Positions 5,726 through 28,592 of a stretch of DNA of 64,000 nt are shown piece by piece (positions within the stretch are counted from its first letter, which is position 1; each line of letters opens with the position of its first letter). The DNA lies in assembly GCF_003334305.1 (NCBI RefSeq), contig NZ_QOWS01000026.1; one strand, given 5' to 3'. Below the pieces are notes generated by a model. It saw nothing but the letters and a program-made list of their open reading frames with translations, was not told where the DNA came from and made no database searches. Source of the DNA: Escherichia coli (lineage in GTDB: Bacteria; Pseudomonadota; Gammaproteobacteria; Enterobacterales; Enterobacteriaceae). Both the position numbers and the translations under genes were made by a program.

Positions 5726-8738
<3,013 letters not shown>

Positions 8739-8743
8739 ACACT

Positions 8744-8869
8744 GCCGGATGCGGCGCGAGCGCCTTATCCGGCCTACAGGTCGGCAACAGTTGTAGGCCT
8801 GATAAGACGCGACAGCGTCGCATCAGGCATTGATTGCCGGATGCGGCACGAGCGCCTTATCCGGCCTAC
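8744..8869. repeat. REP/BIME cluster (three REP units)
   Basis: gccggatgcggcgcgagcgccttatccggcctac at 8744..8777, an inverted copy at 8793..8828, and a third at 8836..8869. Confidence 0.85.
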
Positions 8870-8912
8870 GGGTCGTGCATCTGACAACACCGAATTTACA
8901 GGAACACAGAAC

Positions 8913-9737
8913 ATGCAAAACATTACCCAGTCCTGGTTTGTCCAGGGAATGATCAAAGCCACCACCGATGCCTGGCTGAAAGGCTGGGACGAGCGCAACG
9001 GCGGCAACCTGACGCTGCGCCTGGATGACGCCGATATCGCGCCTTATAAAGACAACTTCCATGCACAACCGCGCTATATCCCGCTCAGCCAGCCCATGCC
9101 TTTACTGGCAAATACACCGTTTATTGTCACCGGCTCCGGCAAATTCTTCCGTAACGTCCAGCTTGATCCTGCAGCTAACTTAGGCGTCGTAAAAGTCGAC
9201 AGCGACGGCGCGGGCTACCATATTCTCTGGGGGTTAACCAACGAAGCCGTTCCAACTTCTGAACTTCCGGCTCACTTTCTCTCCCACTGCGAGCGCATTA
9301 AAGCCACCAACGGTAAAGATCGGGTGATCATGCACTGCCACGCCACCAACCTGATCGCCCTCACCTATGTACTGGAAAACGACACCGCGGTCTTTACTCG
9401 CCAACTGTGGGAAGGCAGCACCGAGTGTCTGGTGGTATTCCCGGATGGCGTTGGCATTCTGCCGTGGATGGTGCCCGGCACGGACGAAATCGGCCAGGCG
9501 ACCGCACAAGAGATGCAAAAACATTCGCTGGTGTTGTGGCCCTTCCACGGCGTCTTCGGCAGCGGGTCGACGTTGGATGAAACATTCGGTTTAATCGACA
9601 CCGCAGAAAAATCAGCACAAGTATTAGTGAAGGTTTATTCGATGGGCGGCATGAAACAGACCATCAGCCGTGAAGAGTTGATAGCGCTCGGCAAGCGCTT
9701 CGGCGTTACACCACTAGCCAGTGCGCTGGCGCTGTAA
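8913..9737 (+). CDS. rhaD: Rhamnulose-1-phosphate aldolase
   Basis: 274 aa from ATG 8913 ([33 protein letters not shown]...); track ORF starts upstream inside the REP cluster. Confidence 0.95.
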
Positions 9738-9746
9738 GGAGCAAAC

Positions 9747-10061
9747 ATGATCCGCAAAGCCTTTGTCATGCAGGTTAACCCCGACGCTCACGAAGAGTAT
9801 CAGCGTCGGCATAACCCCATCTGGCCGGAACTGGAAGCAGTGTTGAAATCTCACGGTGCGCATAACTACGCCATTTACCTCGACAAAGCGCGTAATCTGC
9901 TGTTTGCCACGGTAGAGATTGAATCTGAAGAGCGCTGGAATGCGGTTGCCAGTACTGATGTTTGCCAACGTTGGTGGAAATATATGACCGACGTCATGCC
10001 CGCGAACCCGGATAACAGCCCGGTGAGTAGCGAACTGCAAGAAGTGTTTTACCTGCCGTAA
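9747..10061 (+). CDS. rhaM: L-rhamnose mutarotase
   Basis: 104 aa [33 protein letters not shown]..., recognised as RhaM (YiiL). Confidence 0.93.
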
Positions 10062-10068
10062 TTGCCTA

Positions 10069-10104
10069 ATGTGCCGGAGACGCCTCCGGCACAATATTTT
10101 TAAT
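10069..10104 (+). terminator. rhaBADM operon terminator
   Basis: Perfect stem gtgccggag/ctccggcac followed by aatattttta. Confidence 0.7.
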
Positions 10105-10373
10105 TTCGATTTGAAAAATAAACATATTACACCTTCAGTTAATATATCCCGGTAACTTATATTTCCCCGATGCATTGTGAGTAAATCACAAAAATAATGA
10201 ATAACTCATTAATGATTCATGTGGTTTATTTAAATAACCATTATGTGCATTACTCCGCAAATCTGACCTTTCACTCTGTCTCAAATTGTCATTGTTTACC
10301 GACATATCGCCTCTCATCACTTAATCGCTCCACCATTACAATTGATTAAAATATATTTCATGGAGTCCGATTA

Positions 10374-21957: not shown

Positions 21958-22883
21958 GTATTCGCATAATCCCGCAAGATGAGCTGGGTTCAAGCGAGAA
22001 ACGTACGGCGGATATGATTCCGCCGTTATTGTTCCCTCGGCTCAAGAATTTATACAACCGCCGCGCCGAGCGTCTGCGCGAGCTGGCAGAAAATAATCCG
22101 CTGGGTGATTACCTGCGCTTTGCTGCGCTTATCGCCCACGCCCAGGAAGTGGTGCTGTACGACCATCCGCTGGAGATGGATCTGACCGCGCGCATTAAAG
22201 AAGCCAGCGCACAGGGCAAGCCCCCGCTGGATATTCACGTTCTGCCGCGTGATAAGCACTGGCAAAAGCTGCTGATGGCGCTGATTGCTGAGCTGAAACC
22301 TGAAATGAGCGGCCCGGCGCTGGCAGTGATTGAGAATCTGGAGAAGGCATCGACTCAGGAGCTGGAAGATATGGCCAGCGCACTGTTTGCCTCTGATTTC
22401 TCATCCGTCAGCAGCGATAAAGCGCCGTTTATCTGGGCTGCACTGTCGCTCTACTGGGCGCAGATGGCCAATCTGATCCCCGGCAAAGCCCGCGCTGAAT
22501 ACGGCGAGCAACGTCAATATTGCCCGGTTTGTGGTTCTATGCCGGTGTCCAGCATGGTGCAAATTGGCACCACTCAGGGTCTGCGTTACCTGCACTGCAA
22601 CCTGTGTGAAACCGAATGGCACGTAGTGCGCGTAAAATGCAGCAACTGCGAGCAGAGCGGCAAACTGCATTACTGGTCGCTGGATGACGAACAGGCCGCG
22701 ATTAAAGCCGAAAGCTGCGATGACTGTGGCACTTACCTGAAGATTCTTTATCAGGAAAAAGAACCGAAAGTTGAAGCCGTGGCAGATGACCTCGCTTCTC
22801 TGGTACTGGACGCGCGAATGGAGCAAGAAGGCTATGCCCGCAGTTCCATCAACCCGTTCCTGTTTCCGGGTGAAGGGGAGTAA
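21954..22883 (+). CDS. fdhE: Formate dehydrogenase formation protein FdhE
   Basis: 309 aa ORF with paired CxxC motifs; ATGA overlap with fdoI. Confidence 0.95.
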
Positions 22884-23127
22884 TCTCTGACGTTTTCCGG
22901 GTGGCGCTGGTCGCCCGGATTACAGCTCATAGGGTGTGACGACACCATCTCTCGTATTCCGCGTTACCCATTCAAGATCATGCCGCAATTGTCTGTTTGC
23001 CTCGTTCTTCCCTCCAACACATCGATAAGGTTATGGGTATGTCACTGATGACAAGCGTATGATTGCCTGATGCGCTGCGCTTATCAGCCCTACCAATAAA
23101 CTTCAATATATTGAATTTGCATGACTT

Positions 23128-23161
23128 TGTAGGCCGGATAAGGCGTTCACGCCGCATCCGG
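23128..23161. repeat. REP element
   Basis: gtaggccggataaggcgttcacgccgcatccggc, between convergent fdhE and yiiF. Confidence 0.75.
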
Positions 23162-23212
23162 CATGAACAACGCGCACGTTGTCAGCAATCTGATTGACAT
23201 CATTTTTTCCCA

Positions 23213-23431
23213 TTACCATTCCTCGCGCAGCTTACGCTGATATTCGACACCATCTTCCTCACACCCTTGCCAGATGCCAGGAACACTGGTTCTTGCTGTT
23301 TGCGATTGATTTATCAGGTATTGATCTACCGCTTCCCTTAATAGGTCCGCACGAGGAAGATTACGCTGCACCTCGAGATCATCAAGTTGCTTAATCACCT
23401 CATTCGATAAATCGAGTAAAATTCTGCCCAT
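23213..23431 (-). CDS. yiiF: Ribbon-helix-helix (CopG-like) small protein YiiF
   Basis: 72 aa from ATG 23431 ([39 protein letters not shown]...); the in-frame ATG at 23455 is an alternative start. Confidence 0.8.
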
Positions 23432-23540
23432 ATCTATACCTGCCAGAGAGTTCATAAATATCTCGCCAATATCATTTTTGAATCTATGGAGAGAAAAGTA
23501 CCCTTGCCGAATCTTTAAAGAAAGCTCATTTACGCATCAT

Positions 23541-23590
23541 TTTTTATTTTTGCGAGGCGTTTTCCAGATACGATGTAACAGTTGCAGTTA
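23541..23590 (-). repeat. Conserved upstream element, copy 1 (before yiiF)
   Basis: Core tttgcgaggcgttttccaga at 23549..23568 (plus strand); shares an extended ~45 bp match with copy 2, including gttgcagtt. Confidence 0.6.
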
Positions 23591-23673
23591 TTATAAGTTC
23601 AAGTAAAACAGCCTTGTATTAATACCAGAATAAGGGCATCTGTTTTTTTATATTCAAGAATGAAAAATTTTTT

Positions 23674-23892
23674 TCATTCCTTATGCTCCTTACACTGATC
23701 ATCAACACCAACTGTCTCACCCCTTTGCCTGCCTCTCTTTGCTTTACGCACCGGAAATTGCTGCCGCTCCAGATATTGCTCAACCGCTTCGCGTAAAATT
23801 GCAGATCGTGAAACCTTACGCCAGCCCCGAAGCTTGTTCAGCCGTTTAATTGCCTCTTCTGATAAATGAAGAAAAACCGTATTCATCGCCAT
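23674..23892 (-). CDS. yiiE: Ribbon-helix-helix (CopG-like) small protein YiiE
   Basis: 72 aa from ATG 23892 (MAMNTVFLHLSEEAIKRLNKLRGWRKVSRSAILREAVEQYL...) with AAGGTGG SD 5 nt upstream. Confidence 0.85.
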   Translation of the reverse strand: MAMNTVFLHLSEEAIKRLNKLRGWRKVSRSAILREAVEQYLERQQFPVRKAKRGRQRGETVGVDDQCKEHKE

Positions 23893-23979
23893 TACCACCA
23901 CCTTACATATATTACTCATTAATGTATGTGCGAAAATTACGCCGGAAAATCATTTAAAAAAAGCGGATTTTTGCATGTT

Positions 23980-24029
23980 GTTTTGTTTTTGCGAGGTGTT
24001 TTCCAGAAATAATAAGAGTGTTGCAGTTG
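23980..24029 (-). repeat. Conserved upstream element, copy 2 (before yiiE)
   Basis: Core tttgcgaggtgttttccaga at 23988..24007, then gttgcagtt at 24020..24028. Confidence 0.6.
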
Positions 24030-24318
24030 TTTCATTTATTACTCAAAAATGGTTTAGTTATCGCCCAGGATGAGTTATGGATGCTATGAATATATTATAT
24101 TCAGGGATGTTTATTTTTTGATTGGATCTTTATTTGCATAATCTGAATGGTGTACCCGAAAAATGTCAGCATCCTAACAGCACCCGGATTTAAGGTGAAA
24201 TTAATCATCCATCACAGACCGGTCAGTACTGCCACCAACCGGTCTTTACTTGTTCATCGTTATAATTTTGTTGGTAACAGTTCGGGAAACAAGGAATTCC
24301 TTCCGGAACCCCCCGGTA

Positions 24319-24411
24319 TCATCCGATAGCATTGACGTCAATCATCAGCGCGACGATGAGTTTTTTTAATCGCATCATAGGGTGGCGACGTTCAGCACGA
24401 TTACGGGTCAT
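24319..24411 (-). CDS. Hypothetical 30-aa ORF downstream of antitoxin gene
   Basis: ATG at 24411 preceded by CAGGAG with a 7-nt spacer; translation MTRNRAERRHPMMRLKKLIVALMIDVNAIG. Below the ORF-track size cutoff; no homology assessed. Confidence 0.25.
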   Translation of the reverse strand: MTRNRAERRHPMMRLKKLIVALMIDVNAIG

Positions 24412-24496
24412 AGCAAAACTCCTGGGCAGGCGACCACTATGCCGCTTTCACAGGAGTTCTGAATGCTAGTGCTTTCTGTATGGCATAACCATGCCT

Positions 24497-24787
24497 CTAA
24501 CGGTTAAGTGCTTGCAGCACATGTTGCGGATCATTGGCAATCGCTCGCAGCAAAGCCTTTGCAGGCCCGGTCGGTGAACGTCGCCCCTGCTCCCAGTTAC
24601 GCAACGTGTCTACGCTTACAGAAATAAGATCGGCAAATTTAGATTGTGACAACCCTGAAGCGCGGCGTATTTCTTTGATTTTCATAGCATCAACTTCAAA
24701 AGTCCGCGAAGGCTGTCGCGTTCCTTCAATAATTTCATTCATCTGGGCCATGCTGTGAGTCAACCGCTCAAAAAGTGCCTTATCCAT
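24497..24787 (-). CDS. XRE-family HTH antitoxin-like protein (HigA-like)
   Basis: 96 aa ORF; ..IKEIRRASGLSQSKFADLISVSVDTLRNWEQGRRSPTGPAKALLRAI.. is a typical XRE helix-turn-helix; start directly abuts the toxin ORF stop. Confidence 0.75.
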   Translation of the reverse strand: MDKALFERLTHSMAQMNEIIEGTRQPSRTFEVDAMKIKEIRRASGLSQSKFADLISVSVDTLRNWEQGRRSPTGPAKALLRAIANDPQHVLQALNR

Positions 24788-25099
24788 TTACCACCTCGTA
24801 TTTAACAACCGGAGCATTGCTTTTTCCTGGGGAGACAGATCATCTTTAATACCCTTACGATAAATAAGCAGTAATCTGATCTCATAATGTTTAACCTGAT
24901 GAAAGTAAATAACCCTGACACCAGCACGTTTCCCCTTTCCTCCTGAAACCCATCGAACCTTTCTTAACCCACCAGTTTCAGGTATTACCTCACCATAGTC
25001 AGGATTCAAGGCCAGGAAAAACTGAAAACGACTGAATTCATCGTCGGTCAGCAGTTTTTGAACATCTTCAGTAAAAATTTCCGTTTCGATGAAGAGCAT
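24788..25099 (-). CDS. RelE/ParE-superfamily (HigB-like) toxin-like protein
   Basis: 103 aa ORF MLFIETEIFTEDVQKLL...GGLRKVRWVSGGKGKRAGVRVIYFHQ...LLLIYRKGIKDDLSPQEK...; motif pattern matches RelE-like toxins that pair with a downstream HTH antitoxin. Confidence 0.7.
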   Translation of the reverse strand: MLFIETEIFTEDVQKLLTDDEFSRFQFFLALNPDYGEVIPETGGLRKVRWVSGGKGKRAGVRVIYFHQVKHYEIRLLLIYRKGIKDDLSPQEKAMLRLLNTRW

Positions 25100-25136
25100 A
25101 ATTATACGCCATTGGCTTAGAGTAACAATCCTTTTT

Positions 25137-25153
25137 GTACGTCATTGACGTAC
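25137..25153. promoter_or_regulatory. Perfect palindrome, candidate operator of the toxin-antitoxin operon
   Basis: gtacgtcaTtgacgtac (8-bp arms) 38 bp upstream of the toxin start codon. Confidence 0.4.
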
Positions 25154-25215
25154 CCTTGAAACCACTAGCTTACTGATAGTGCTCCAGCAAAACCACGTCT
25201 CTGCCGGGTTTGTCT

Positions 25216-25240
25216 TTAGATTTGCGAGGCGCTTTCCAGA
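25216..25240 (-). repeat. Conserved upstream element, copy 3 (before toxin gene)
   Basis: Core tttgcgaggcgctttccaga at 25221..25240, about 120 bp upstream of the toxin ATG, in the divergent intergenic region shared with the esterase gene. Confidence 0.55.
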
Positions 25241-25327
25241 TTTTTCACGCCCGTGAATTTCCCTGTATCCATCCAGCAAAAACGGGTGTATAAGACTGTA
25301 CATTCATACAGCAAAATAAGTTCTACT

Positions 25328-26236
25328 ATGGCACTGGAAAAAGGAATTGCAGAGTTAGTCGAAAAGTTTATCGCTGCGGGTCGCCCCTCATCGCGTCAAC
25401 AAAGTATTGCGCAGCGCAGGGAGGGCTATATCGCCAGCGCTGTCCTTGCGGGTGAGACAGAAACGCGGGTAGATATTCAGACTATCGAACTTGAAGGGAT
25501 GACCTTACGAATAGTGTCGCCGCTGAATGCCCCGACATTACTCCCGACGATAATTTATTACTACGGTGGCTGTTTTGTTAGCGGCGGGTTCGCAACTCAC
25601 GACAACCAGCTGCGCCAGTTAGCCTATTACGGGCAATGTCGGGTTATTGCCGTCCAGTATCGGCTGGCACCGGAACATACTTTCCCCGCCGCCCATGATG
25701 ATGCGCAACGAGGTGCAGAAATAGTCTGGCAACACGCCGAACGACTCGGCGTTGATAAACAACGTATAACTCTTGCCGGTGACAGTGCGGGCGGACATCT
25801 GGCGCTGGTAACTGCTTTGCGATTAAAGCGTGCTGGCGAGTGGCAACCGGCACAACTCATCTTAATTTATCCTATGCTTGATGCGACTGCGCATTTCGAA
25901 AGCTACATACGCAATGGTCACGATTACATCATCACACGCGACACTTTACTGAGCGGCTTTGAGATGTATCTGCCAGGCATTGAACGCAGGCATCCTGAAG
26001 CCAGCCCTCTTTGGCGCGATGATTTCAATGGCTTGCCACCTGTACATATCATTACCGCTGAATACGACCCACTTTGCGATGAAGGTGAAGCGTTGTATCA
26101 CCGCATGACAGGGCAAGGAGTGCAATGCACCTGCCAACGCTACCTTGGCGTTATCCACGGATTTTTTCAGTTAGGTGGTATCAGCGAGGCCGCGCGATCG
26201 GCACTACGGGATGTTGCCTGGAGAGCGGGAAGGTAA
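25328..26236 (+). CDS. Alpha/beta-hydrolase fold esterase/lipase (HSL-like family)
   Basis: ORF track 25253..26236 (GTG); first ATG at 25328 (MALEKGIAELV...). Contains GDSAGG nucleophile elbow, acidic residue in EYDPL and His in GVIHGF; oxyanion-hole region reads YYGGCF rather than HGGG. Confidence 0.7.
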   Translation: MALEKGIAELVEKFIAAGRPSSRQQSIAQRREGYIASAVLAGETETRVDIQTIELEGMTLRIVSPLNAPTLLPTIIYYYGGCFVSGGFATHDNQLRQLAYYGQCRVIAVQYRLAPEHTFPAAHDDAQRGAEIVWQHAERLGVDKQRITLAGDSAGGHLALVTALRLKRAGEWQPAQLILIYPMLDATAHFESYIRNGHDYIITRDTLLSGFEMYLPGIERRHPEASPLWRDDFNGLPPVHIITAEYDPLCDEGEALYHRMTGQGVQCTCQRYLGVIHGFFQLGGISEAARSALRDVAWRAGR

Positions 26237-26251
26237 CTTCGGACCTGGGCC

Positions 26252-26284
26252 CTGAAAAGGTTTTCAGATTGAAAACCTTTTCAG
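26252..26284. terminator. Strong inverted repeat between convergent esterase gene and yiiD
   Basis: 12-bp perfect arms gaaaaggttttc / gaaaaccttttc with loop agatt; no clear U-tract on either strand. Confidence 0.35.
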
Positions 26285-26299
26285 TCAAGTAAAACGCCC

Positions 26300-27289
26300 C
26301 TACTCTTCTTCGTTCCCGCCCTCTTCATACGGGCCAAATGGCTTCGCGGGCAGAACGATATACGTGCCTTCAAACACTGCACCCGGCGTCTCGTCGCCAA
26401 AGATTTCAACTTGCATCTGCACCCGTGCTTTTCGTCCGCGCGCCAGACGGTCGAGATCGCCGCTTAAGGCACCAAGGTCGGCTATCGCATGAGGTTTACC
26501 GCTAATCGGCTTGCTGTAGCGGATATGCGCATCCGCCAGAATAATCGTTCCGCCGAGATGGCGTTCGCGCAGCATCAGCCAGATAAGCCCCCAACCGGTG
26601 AGCGTCGCCAGCGAGAATAAACTCCCGGCAAACAGCGTATGGTGCGGATTCTGATTGCCGGTTTCCGGCATGGTGGTGATAAATTTTTGCCCGGTATATT
26701 GTTGAATGCGCACGCCCATTTTTTCGCTTAATGGAATGTGTTCATACCACGCCTGTTGCAGCTGGGCGCACCAGTCACCGCGATGCAGAATATCATCCAG
26801 AGTGGCAACGGGTTTAATCATCAAAAAATGGCGAATCGGCGTGGTAGTTGGGGTGGTGATCTCCCCCTGATTAATGAATCCCAGCTTGGCGAAAAACTCC
26901 ACCGCGTCTTCACGGGCGCTACAGGTCACGCGCTTAACGCCTTCCTGACGCGCCACCGACTCCAGGGTCATCGCCATCAGCGTTCCTAACCCTTTGTCCT
27001 GCACGTCGGGATGAACGGCCATAAAGCGAATGGACGCTTCATTGTCGGCATTAATATACAATCGGCCTACCGCCACCAGATTACCCTGCTCGTCGACGAC
27101 CATCTGGTGATGCGCCATCGCATCCCACGCGTCGCGTTCCGAACCTTTTGGTTGATGCAGGGGCTTACGCAACATTTCCCAGCGAAACTGATAGTAACGC
27201 TCTAATTCTTCTTCTGTTTGTGGAACCCGAAGGTGATACATAGCGATACTCTCTCTTGTTTCCCGTGACAACCCTGGAAGCTGGCTCAT
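26300..27289 (-). CDS. yiiD: GNAT acetyltransferase / thioesterase fusion protein YiiD (FabY)
   Basis: 329 aa [43 protein letters not shown]..., recognised as YiiD. Confidence 0.92.
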
Positions 27290-27723
27290 ACCTGCAACCA
27301 GAATGTCACGGGGCCATCATTGACCAGCGATACCTGCATATCGGCAGCGAAGCGTCCTGTTTGCGTGTTCATCTCTTGCTGGCGGCAGCGTTCGACGAAA
27401 TAGTCATATAACGCCTCTGCGCGATCCGGTGATGCGCCTTTGGAGAAACTTGGGCGCATCCCTCGTTCGGTATCTGCGGCGAGGGTAAACTGGGAAACCA
27501 CCAGTACACTGCCGCCCGCCTGTTGCACGTTGAGATTCATCTTGCCTTCGGCATCGCTAAAGATGCGGTAGCCGAGCACACGCTCGCACAGACGGTTTGC
27601 TTTCTGTTCGTCGTCATCCTTTTCGACACCCAATAACACCAAAAGTCCCGCGCCAATTTCGCCCGTCACTTCTCCCTCCACGGTGACGCTGGCACGGGTT
27701 ACGCGTTGAATTAATGCAATCAT
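27286..27723 (-). CDS. dtd: D-aminoacyl-tRNA deacylase
   Basis: 145 aa [40 protein letters not shown]...; 4-nt overlap with yiiD. Confidence 0.95.
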
Positions 27724-28592
27724 GGTTCGTCGTCTTCTTCTTGTTCAGCTGCTTGTTTTAGTTTGCGGTATTCCCCGAGAGTGACAGTAATTTCCGCGCC
27801 AAGCAAGACGATACACCATGTCCAGTAGACCCAAACAAAGAGAATGGGGATCACCGCCAGCACGCCGTAAATGAGCTGATATGACGGGAACATGGTGATA
27901 TAAAGCGCGAAACCTTTCTTTCCTGCTTCGAACAGGAGTGCAGCGACAAACGCGCCGACAATCGCGTCGCGGTTAGGTACGCGGATGGTAGGAACAATGC
28001 TGTACAGCAACCAGAAGGAGATCCACGACAACAGCAGCGGAAAAATACGCAGCACGTTGTCGATGACAGTATTGAGATCGCTCGCCCAGCGCAGGGAGAG
28101 CAAATAGGAACTGATCGCCAGACTGGCCCCTGCCAGCAGCGGCCCCAGCGTTAAAATCATCCAGTACACGGCAAACGAGTAAATTTTTGGTCGCGCTCGT
28201 TTACTGCGCCAGATGGTATTCAACGCGCTATCGATGGAGTACATCAACAATAATGCGGTGACGATCAGCCCGCACGCGCCAACGGCGGTCATCTTGTTGG
28301 AATTGGCAACAAATTGTTCGATATACCGCTGAATAACATCGCCAGTAGCAGGCAGAAAGTTGGCAAAAATAAAGTGACGCAACTGAATGCTGACGTCGGA
28401 AAACATGGGAAAAGCGGCGAAAAGCGCAAAAACAACGGCAACCAGCGGCACTAATGAGAGCAAAGACACATAGGCAAGGTTACCTGCCAGGGTTGTCATG
28501 TTGTCCTCATCAATACGTTGCCAGAGTAGTTTTAGCCAGGCCCATAGTGGACGAGTACGGTGCCTGGCTTTGTCCTGAATGGTTTTTAGCAT
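27720..28592 (-). CDS. yihY: YihY/BrkB-family inner membrane protein
   Basis: 290 aa polytopic membrane ORF; overlaps dtd start by 4 nt. Confidence 0.9.

Follow-up and report, generated by a model that had tools for sequence, protein, structure and literature searches.

Our results suggest that the DNA between yiiE and fabY (yiiD) in the Escherichia coli stretch studied here very probably preserves, in intact form, an old enterobacterial locus (fdhE/yiiF-yiiE-fabY) that has been lost in K-12. The stretch, which we call the window, comprises 64,000 nucleotides of contig NZ_QOWS01000026.1 (assembly GCF_003334305.1). Between yiiE and fabY it carries a predicted HigBA-2 toxin-antitoxin operon, higB2-higA2, and a divergent esterase gene that is probably controlled by LexA. 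The original prediction, made from the letters of the window, had recognized a RelE/HigB-like toxin with an XRE helix-turn-helix antitoxin and an alpha/beta-hydrolase esterase in this interval, and had read the whole as a small accessory islet. The open reading frame (ORF) listing and the matches to HigB-2 and HigA-2 bear out the coordinates and identities of the toxin and antitoxin. The esterase is confirmed as well, with 302 residues (the 303 given earlier counted the stop codon). It is the islet that does not survive, since its polarity is reversed: the interval is syntenic in other genera, and K-12 carries a deletion scar.

The age of the locus is indicated by gene order. We examined one genome per esterase-bearing species (23 loci) by tblastn with the window proteins. 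The order fdhE-(yiiF)-esterase-fabY-dtd-yihY was found in at least 20 species of seven genera, namely Citrobacter, Superficieibacter, Lelliottia, Klebsiella (K. pneumoniae, K. oxytoca, K. michiganensis, K. grimontii, K. indica and K. spallanzanii), Kosakonia, Enterobacter and Franconibacter, and also in Salmonella. In the Franconibacter locus examined, the fabY-dtd-yihY side was not recovered. The spacer between esterase and fabY measures 63 bp in the window and about 57–70 bp in most genera. K. spallanzanii carries a gene for a 92-residue protein, higA2 (85% identity) and higB2 (72%) at the same site, UBA5654 (an uncultured member of the Enterobacteriaceae) has a higA2 remnant, and Escherichia whittamii has only fragments of the esterase. 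Judged by this synteny, the esterase gene is old and vertically syntenic. The toxin-antitoxin pair would be at least as old as the split between Escherichia and Salmonella, or else it has been exchanged repeatedly at this site.

One could also argue that a horizontally acquired accessory islet was inserted into a K-12-like yiiE-yiiD spacer of this lineage. We consider this very unlikely. That the interval is absent from K-12 and from about half of the E. coli genomes would fit an insertion, but the K-12 site is not empty: its 473 bp are a fragment of a longer haplotype. The comparison of G+C content with the flanking genes, proposed together with the islet, gave a divided answer: higB2 lies below its neighbours (40.7%), whereas the esterase is typical of the genome (52.7%). 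Toxins of the HigB-2 family are common on plasmids (893 plasmid records), yet these homologues are at most about 47% identical, apparent chromosomal misassemblies aside. Low synonymous divergence of the pair among E. coli alleles also speaks for an islet, but the esterase occupies this site in seven other genera and in Salmonella, and the pair does likewise in Salmonella and K. spallanzanii. The borders had been described as free of integrases, insertion sequences (ISs) and tRNA genes. This is correct: the ORF listing of the interval contains no IS or integrase, positions 22000–28000 contain no tRNA gene, and such a lack is expected if nothing was inserted here. No repeat flanks the interval either, the partner of the repeat R1 being present only in the longer haplotype of E597. 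For the esterase we regard the islet as already contradicted.

If the locus is old, its absence from K-12 should have left traces, and the junctions point to a deletion. In MG1655, 852 bp separate fabY from yiiE, and zero genes are annotated there, as the original prediction had said; in K-12 EMG2 and J53 only the flanks of window positions 23400–26700 match; none of the three carries the genes of the interval. Homology to K-12 stops at window position 24289/24290 on the left and resumes at 26299/26300, at the stop codon of fabY, on the right. About 473 bp of unrelated DNA fill the space between these junctions in K-12, a replacement rather than an empty insertion site.

The derived forms were read from pairwise blastn and from breakpoints relative to E597 (locus L005). 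The gene order in E597 is yiiE, the 92-residue gene, higA2, higB2, esterase, a 304-residue “transposase,” most of a 296-residue gene and fabY. K-12 corresponds to E597 minus positions 5948–10206, joined at a 1-nt microhomology, and at least the first 22 codons of the 296-residue gene remain. The 473-bp scar consists of the 5′ end of this gene and its upstream DNA. The gene is intact in O157:H7, largely kept in E597 and reduced to an N-terminal fragment in K-12. In K-12, an illegitimate deletion would have taken the pair and the esterase together with a later insertion (the “transposase” and the 296-residue hypothetical gene), leaving the scar behind. On these breakpoints K-12 is a deletion derivative.

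O157:H7 lost the same genes by a different route. Its sequence is that of E597 without the segment bounded by two direct repeats of about 105 bp, R1 and R2, of which a single hybrid R1/R2 copy (L003 7016–7118) is kept. R2 lies just after the esterase in E597 (L005 8287–8390) and is 85% identical to R1 by blastn; each copy contains the final codons of a higA2-like gene as well as a long hairpin. The single hybrid implies that pair and esterase were deleted by recombination between R1 and R2. The type represented by the window and by sequence type 131 (ST131) has neither the “transposase” nor the 296-residue gene, and retains the short ancestral spacer.

How common is the intact form? A set of 5,426 complete E. 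coli genomes includes 2,637 with the toxin-antitoxin pair and 2,640 with the esterase (about 49%), always as a single chromosomal copy of at least 95% identity, and the description of the interval as strain-variable therefore stands. Carriers include ST131, O104:H4 and Nissle. The near-equal totals, rather than co-occurrence genome by genome, indicate that pair and esterase travel as one unit. The K-12-type 473 bp are found in 3,083 of the 5,426 genomes. Taken with the counts of the unit, this means that at least about 290 genomes hold both, E597 being one example.

Several observations point to higB2-higA2 being a type II toxin-antitoxin operon of the Vibrio cholerae HigBA-2 kind (Pfam PF06296 “RelE”). 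First, the toxin gene comes first in the ORF listing and directly abuts the antitoxin gene. Second, the toxin matches the structures of V. cholerae HigB-2 in the PDB (phmmer, E = 1.5e-19, residues 2–99, 98 of 103 residues). Its R49, R62, Y80 and K82 align with R51, R64, Y82 and K84 of the V. cholerae toxin, so that all four residues are conserved; in V. cholerae, their substitution by alanine reduced activity 170- to 3000-fold (PMC5416850). Third, the antitoxin matches HTH_3 (3e-9) and MqsA_antitoxin (2.6e-4) in Pfam, and over residues 31–89 it matches V. cholerae HigA-2 in the PDB (E = 1.8e-8), residues 1–30 remaining unaligned. PADLOC returned only generic helix-turn-helix matches for the antitoxin, and the match to the NCBIfam model NadS (NF041265, spanning residues 5–89) is marginal at 60.7 bits for a cut-off of 60. 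Between zero and two nonsynonymous changes separate the toxin-antitoxin genes of three alleles (window, ST131 and E597), a conservation consistent with functional genes.

By homology, HigB2 would be a RelE-fold, ribosome-dependent mRNase that cuts mRNA in the ribosomal A site. HigA2 would neutralize it through its N-terminal part, and a HigA2 dimer would use its XRE helix-turn-helix to repress the operon at a 17-bp palindrome upstream of higB2. Toxicity, neutralization and operator binding are thus predictions at this locus. The palindrome, GTACG-N7-CGTAC (GTACGTCATTGACGTAC), occurs once in the window, where 0.01 occurrences are expected. It has the same GTACG half-site and the same spacing as the footprinted operator of V. 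cholerae HigA2, TGTACGC-N5-GCGTACA (PMC11006873). At the aligned position, K. spallanzanii and Salmonella have ATACG-N7-CGTAT, in which both arms have changed symmetrically. We infer from this that the palindrome is the HigA2 operator.

As promoter of higB2 we considered TTGTTA-16-TATAAT (25128–25101), which is near consensus and the best sigma-70-like site in our scan. We rejected it because it ends 1 nt before the ATG, which is too close, and because it is unconserved in other genera. Just upstream of it lies a conserved block, TA(T/C)AAGCCAATGGCGTA, that Salmonella and K. spallanzanii have in common. This block may hold the real −10 element of higB2, which would give a very short leader.

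What the pair does for the cell is a separate question. Instead of regulating growth under SOS or other stress, it could mainly serve in anti-phage abortive infection or defence, or stabilize the adjacent DNA. RelE/ParE-superfamily toxins, PF06296 members among them, have been discussed as defence toxins (bioRxiv 10.1101/2025.01.28.635273), and ST131, Nissle and O157 carry other cargo at this site, a variable hotspot. PADLOC, however, has no model that matches the toxin and gave nothing specific for the antitoxin. A stabilizing effect would fit the near-equal genome counts of pair and esterase, but the two have been deleted jointly at least two times. We think such a main role unlikely. It concerns physiology only and is compatible with an old locus lost in K-12.

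For the second part of the locus, the esterase, we predict repression by LexA and induction upon DNA damage. Its −10 element, TATAAG, is directly followed by a strong LexA box (GACTGTACATTCATACAGCA) that lies 14 nt before the ATG; the core, CTGT-N8-ACAG (25296–25311), lies 17 nt before it. The box is identical to the sulA operator of K-12 (MG1655) at 17 of 20 positions, and the core differs at one base. At the equivalent position, CTG[T/G]-N8-ACAG recurs in every one of the 24 orthologous loci that were scanned, as it does in Salmonella. An alignment of 23 upstream sequences places 10 of 20 invariant columns inside the box, with most of the others in the −10 element and the start codon, and no other part of the intergenic region is as well conserved as the box. 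In Salmonella Typhimurium, the orthologous nlhH (STM14_4846) and the divergent higB-2 (STM14_4847) have one SOS box in common, nalidixic acid raised their expression 15.1-fold and 8.05-fold, respectively, and the subpopulation in which nlhH::gfp is ON was lost in lexA(Ind-) and recA strains (PMC8072944). Probably the E. coli esterase, too, is SOS-inducible and LexA-repressed.

The SOS regulon was defined in K-12. One could speculate that about half of E. coli, though not K-12, possesses two additional LexA-controlled functions, the HigB2 mRNase and the esterase. The SOS control of the esterase, kept across the Enterobacteriaceae, could then reflect an unrecognized enzymatic arm of the DNA-damage response. 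If so, this arm was overlooked because the regulon was defined in a strain that lacks it. It could hydrolyse a genotoxic ester or lactone, or remodel an acylated metabolite. We regard this extension of our interpretation as a long shot.

The esterase itself is a clear member of its family. It matches Pfam PF07859 (Abhydrolase_3) at 5.3e-69 over residues 75–280 (positions 1–209 of 210 in the model), and the solved esterases Est8, PestE and EST2 at E values from 1e-51 to 1e-43. Aligned to Est8 (4YPV), its catalytic triad is S153/D247/H277, within GDSAG (from residue 151), DPLCDEG (D247) and VIHGF (H277). Its scores stay below the cut-offs of the named NCBIfam equivalogs, LipP1 (239.2 for a cut-off of 350), CHL_hydrolase (163.5 for 500) and PRK10162/Aes (138.6 for 389), and hence no named equivalog can be assigned. 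These matches suggest a cytoplasmic carboxylesterase of the hormone-sensitive-lipase family. A ratio of nonsynonymous to synonymous divergence (dN/dS) of 0.13–0.15 among the three E. coli alleles indicates purifying selection, which is consistent with a functional gene.

One residue of the esterase deserves attention. The oxyanion motif HGG reads YGGCF in the window, ST131 and E597 (Y79; codon 79 is TAC, 25562–25564), and HGGCF in 15 of 15 orthologues from other genera and in the Salmonella orthologue. By this distribution, H79Y is a change of the E. coli lineage. The E. coli esterase could accordingly have been crippled or neofunctionalized, with a locus that is decaying in E. coli and is frequently lost for that reason. 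Loss is indeed recurrent: the unit has disappeared at least two times independently, and E. whittamii retains only pieces of the esterase. A decaying gene is rather difficult to reconcile, however, with the dN/dS given above, with an intact triad and GDSAG motif, with a conserved promoter and LexA box, or with an esterase that keeps its full length and at least 95% identity in 2,637 genomes. We therefore find decay or a new function doubtful.

Several findings count against our interpretation. The match of the toxin to Pfam PF06296 is partial and below significance (i-Evalue 0.0062, 17.2 bits), and NCBIfam, PADLOC and PHROGs gave no match for it. This is why PGAP, the pipeline for prokaryotic genome annotation at NCBI, calls the toxin a “hypothetical protein” in most genomes. 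Two of the four residues with which V. cholerae HigA2 contacts bases differ in the antitoxin (R68 to D and E71 to R). At higB2, a Shine-Dalgarno sequence is missing, and the best sigma-70-like site scanned is incompatible with the start of the gene. CTGT-N8-ACAG occurs once in the window for 0.62 expected, which is not rare in itself; the case for the LexA box comes from where it lies, how closely it resembles sulA and how well it is conserved. The pair was not found in most of the other genera that bear the esterase, and its age at the site is therefore less certain than that of the esterase. Synonymous divergence (dS) among the three alleles is 0.015–0.06 for the toxin-antitoxin genes and 0.04–0.07 for the esterase, compared with 0.15–0.20 for fabY; the low values of the unit could reflect its spread among phylogroups by recombination. 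The tyrosine in place of the HGG histidine might impair catalysis. Finally, literature searches by protein accession and by yiiD/yiiE returned no paper on the E. coli genes and no expression, toxicity or binding data from E. coli.

The features of the locus are collected in Table 1. The esterase is separated from the divergent higB2-higA2 by a 228-bp intergenic region. Window positions 23400–26700 (3.3 kb) are 100% identical to the annotated E. coli H15, in which PGAP places equal coding-sequence boundaries and uses the labels “hypothetical protein,” “NadS family protein” and “alpha/beta hydrolase.”

Table 1. Genes and sequence elements of the yiiF-fabY region, in window positions
Feature	Position	Strand	Description
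yiiF	23213-23455		ribbon-helix-helix gene, paralogue of yiiE (~40% identity)
yiiE	23674-23892	-	ribbon-helix-helix gene (CopG family), left flank; also in K-12 (protein 96% identical)
92-residue hypothetical gene, pseudogene remnant	24262-24355	-	C-terminal third; found by tblastn with the E597 protein
R1 repeat	24417-24522		~105 bp: last 26 nt of higA2 and downstream hairpin
higA2-type antitoxin gene	24497-24787	-	96 residues, C-terminal XRE helix-turn-helix
higB2-type toxin gene	24788-25099	-	103 residues, RelE fold (predicted)
Predicted HigA2 operator	25137-25153		perfect palindrome GTACGTCAtTGACGTAC, 17 bp, 38-54 nt upstream of the higB2 ATG
20-nt conserved box	25221-25240	+	TTTGCGAGGCGCTTTCCAGA; more copies at 23549-23568 and 23988-24007
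Esterase promoter core (predicted)	25289-25313	+	-10 TATAAG at 25289-25294, then LexA/SOS box GACTGTACATTCATACAGCA at 25294-25313
Esterase gene	25328-26236	+	302 residues, hormone-sensitive-lipase family (family IV, Abhydrolase_3)
Hairpin	26252-26284		15-bp perfect hairpin between the convergent esterase and fabY
fabY (yiiD)	26300-27289	-	right flank; K-12 homology restarts at its stop codon

Two hairpins bound the unit. The one between esterase and fabY folds with −22.5 kcal/mol on the plus strand and −24.2 kcal/mol on the minus strand (z about −4); a clear U-tract is missing, and this hairpin may act as a terminator. The hairpin of R1 (about 24415–24460) is followed by UUUUG on the minus strand, folds with −31.5 kcal/mol (z = −2.5) and looks like an intrinsic terminator. 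V. cholerae higBA-2 being a superintegron cassette, we also considered the R1 hairpin as a possible attC site of an integron cassette. This reading was dropped, as the RYYYAAC/GTTRRRY consensus is not matched by the bases that flank it.

Downstream of higA2 stands the gene for the 92-residue protein, which is basic and rich in Cys and His and has no family match in NCBIfam, PADLOC or PHROGs. It is intact in ST131 (L004 4259–4537), E597 (L005 5912–6190) and K. spallanzanii (L011 3526–3807, 59% identity), and absent in Salmonella. Its remnant in the window falls into two pieces that lie in different frames and include an in-frame stop, about 394 bp are missing relative to E597, and the left breakpoint of K-12 falls inside it.

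The region upstream of the genes contains a 20-nt box (TTTGCGAGGYGYTTTCCAGA) with three matches in the window, where 0.05 are expected. The copies lie about 95–120 nt upstream of yiiF, yiiE and higB2. The copy near the esterase, at −107 to −88 from its ATG, is kept in most other genera. On the minus strand the box (TGG-N9-TCGCA) resembles the −24/−12 element of sigma-54 promoters. We considered such a promoter and set it aside: a K-12 study by genomic systematic evolution of ligands by exponential enrichment (gSELEX) reported no RpoN site near yiiE or yiiF, and the persistence of the box in genomes without a downstream minus-strand gene counts against it.

The upstream regions of yiiE and yiiF (23948–24031 and 23510–23592) are paralogous beyond the box (84 bp, 77% identity). 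Together with the paralogy of the two genes, this implies a tandem duplication. Both proteins also match PRK11675, “LexA regulated protein” (YbfE), weakly in NCBIfam (E about 0.003–0.005). Rfam contributed zero RNA families in 23200–26500 and only REP-like matches further left: a repetitive extragenic palindromic (REP)-like sequence in the fdhE-yiiF gap (23086–23168) reaches 35.9 bits for ES036 (threshold 37.6) and 38.2 bits for naRNA4 (threshold 59.5).

Other genomes carry further genes in this neighbourhood. ST131 has a DUF6708 protein and a 246-residue hypothetical protein between yiiF and yiiE (L004 1846–3459), and Nissle 1917 has an ISL3-family (ISEc53) transposase and a ClbS/DfsB-family protein. 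This variable cargo marks the fdhE-fabY interval as a small hotspot of variability. The “transposase” and the 296-residue hypothetical gene lie between the position of the esterase and fabY in E597 (L005 8457–10271) and O157:H7 (L003 7185–8999). The name of the former comes from PGAP and is unsupported by Pfam, NCBIfam, PHROGs and PADLOC; the latter has no match in NCBIfam, PHROGs or PADLOC. In the soil metagenome-assembled genome CTSoil_132 (L017 5001 onward), the ORF of the esterase lacks its usual stop and runs on for about 120 residues, an extension that could represent fusion to the following gene or an artefact of assembly or frame.

If our interpretation is correct, K-12 is the deletion mutant here, and what seems an added islet by comparison with it represents the ancestral state. 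K-12 would thus under-represent its species, and catalogues of SOS genes and toxin-antitoxin systems that are based on it omit both the pair and the esterase. This could matter for persistence, for the response to fluoroquinolones and for variation between strains. The practical consequence is modest.

The locus is essentially already known: it is annotated in thousands of RefSeq genomes, its proteins belong to well-known families, and the Salmonella orthologues have been published. A close relative is the orthologous locus of Salmonella enterica between fabY and fdhE, which consists of nlhH (STM4032/STM14_4846) and higB-2/higA-2 (STM4032.2N-STM4033/STM14_4847). Identity to the window proteins is 76% for the esterase, 71% for HigB2 and 87% for HigA2 (STM4033). 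A contig of Salmonella Infantis reads yihY-dtd-fabY-[STM4030/4031 pair]-esterase<->higB-2-higA-2-fdhE. Salmonella has a like LexA box 15 nt before the ATG of the esterase, a like operator position and the conserved blocks. It differs in lacking yiiE and yiiF here, in its HGG motif (YGG in E. coli) and in its operator half-site (ATACG instead of GTACG). In addition, Salmonella Infantis has a second, unrelated RelE/Xre pair (STM4031/STM4030; L030 2014–2732) between esterase and fabY, at the position that the “transposase” and the 296-residue gene take in E597 and O157. E. coli, unlike Salmonella, is polymorphic for the locus. A retracted paper (PMC3868539), which we cite for nomenclature only, named the Salmonella pair sehCD and noted an E. 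coli HigB of 72% identity.

The HigB-2/HigA-2 system of V. cholerae (VCA0468/0469; PDB 5JA8, 5JAA, 5J9I, 8A0X) is alike in its toxin-first operon. Catalytic residues, the C-terminal XRE helix-turn-helix of the antitoxin, and the half-site and spacing of the operator are common to both. The two systems differ in that overall identity is modest, the 30 N-terminal residues of the antitoxin do not align and two of the four DNA-contacting residues are different. The V. cholerae copy is a superintegron cassette, whereas the E. coli copy, known from its sequence, is a fixed chromosomal locus beside an esterase and a LexA box. The esterase shares Abhydrolase_3, GDSAG and the triad with the family IV carboxylesterases Est8 (4YPV), PestE (2YH2), EST2 (1EVQ) and E. 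coli Aes (4KRX), at E values from 1e-51 to 1e-29, and departs from them in having YGG instead of HGG. Compared with the SOS genes of K-12, its box stands beside the −10 element as in typical SOS promoters. Unlike them, the gene has no obvious role in DNA repair and is absent from K-12, and its control by LexA in E. coli is a prediction.

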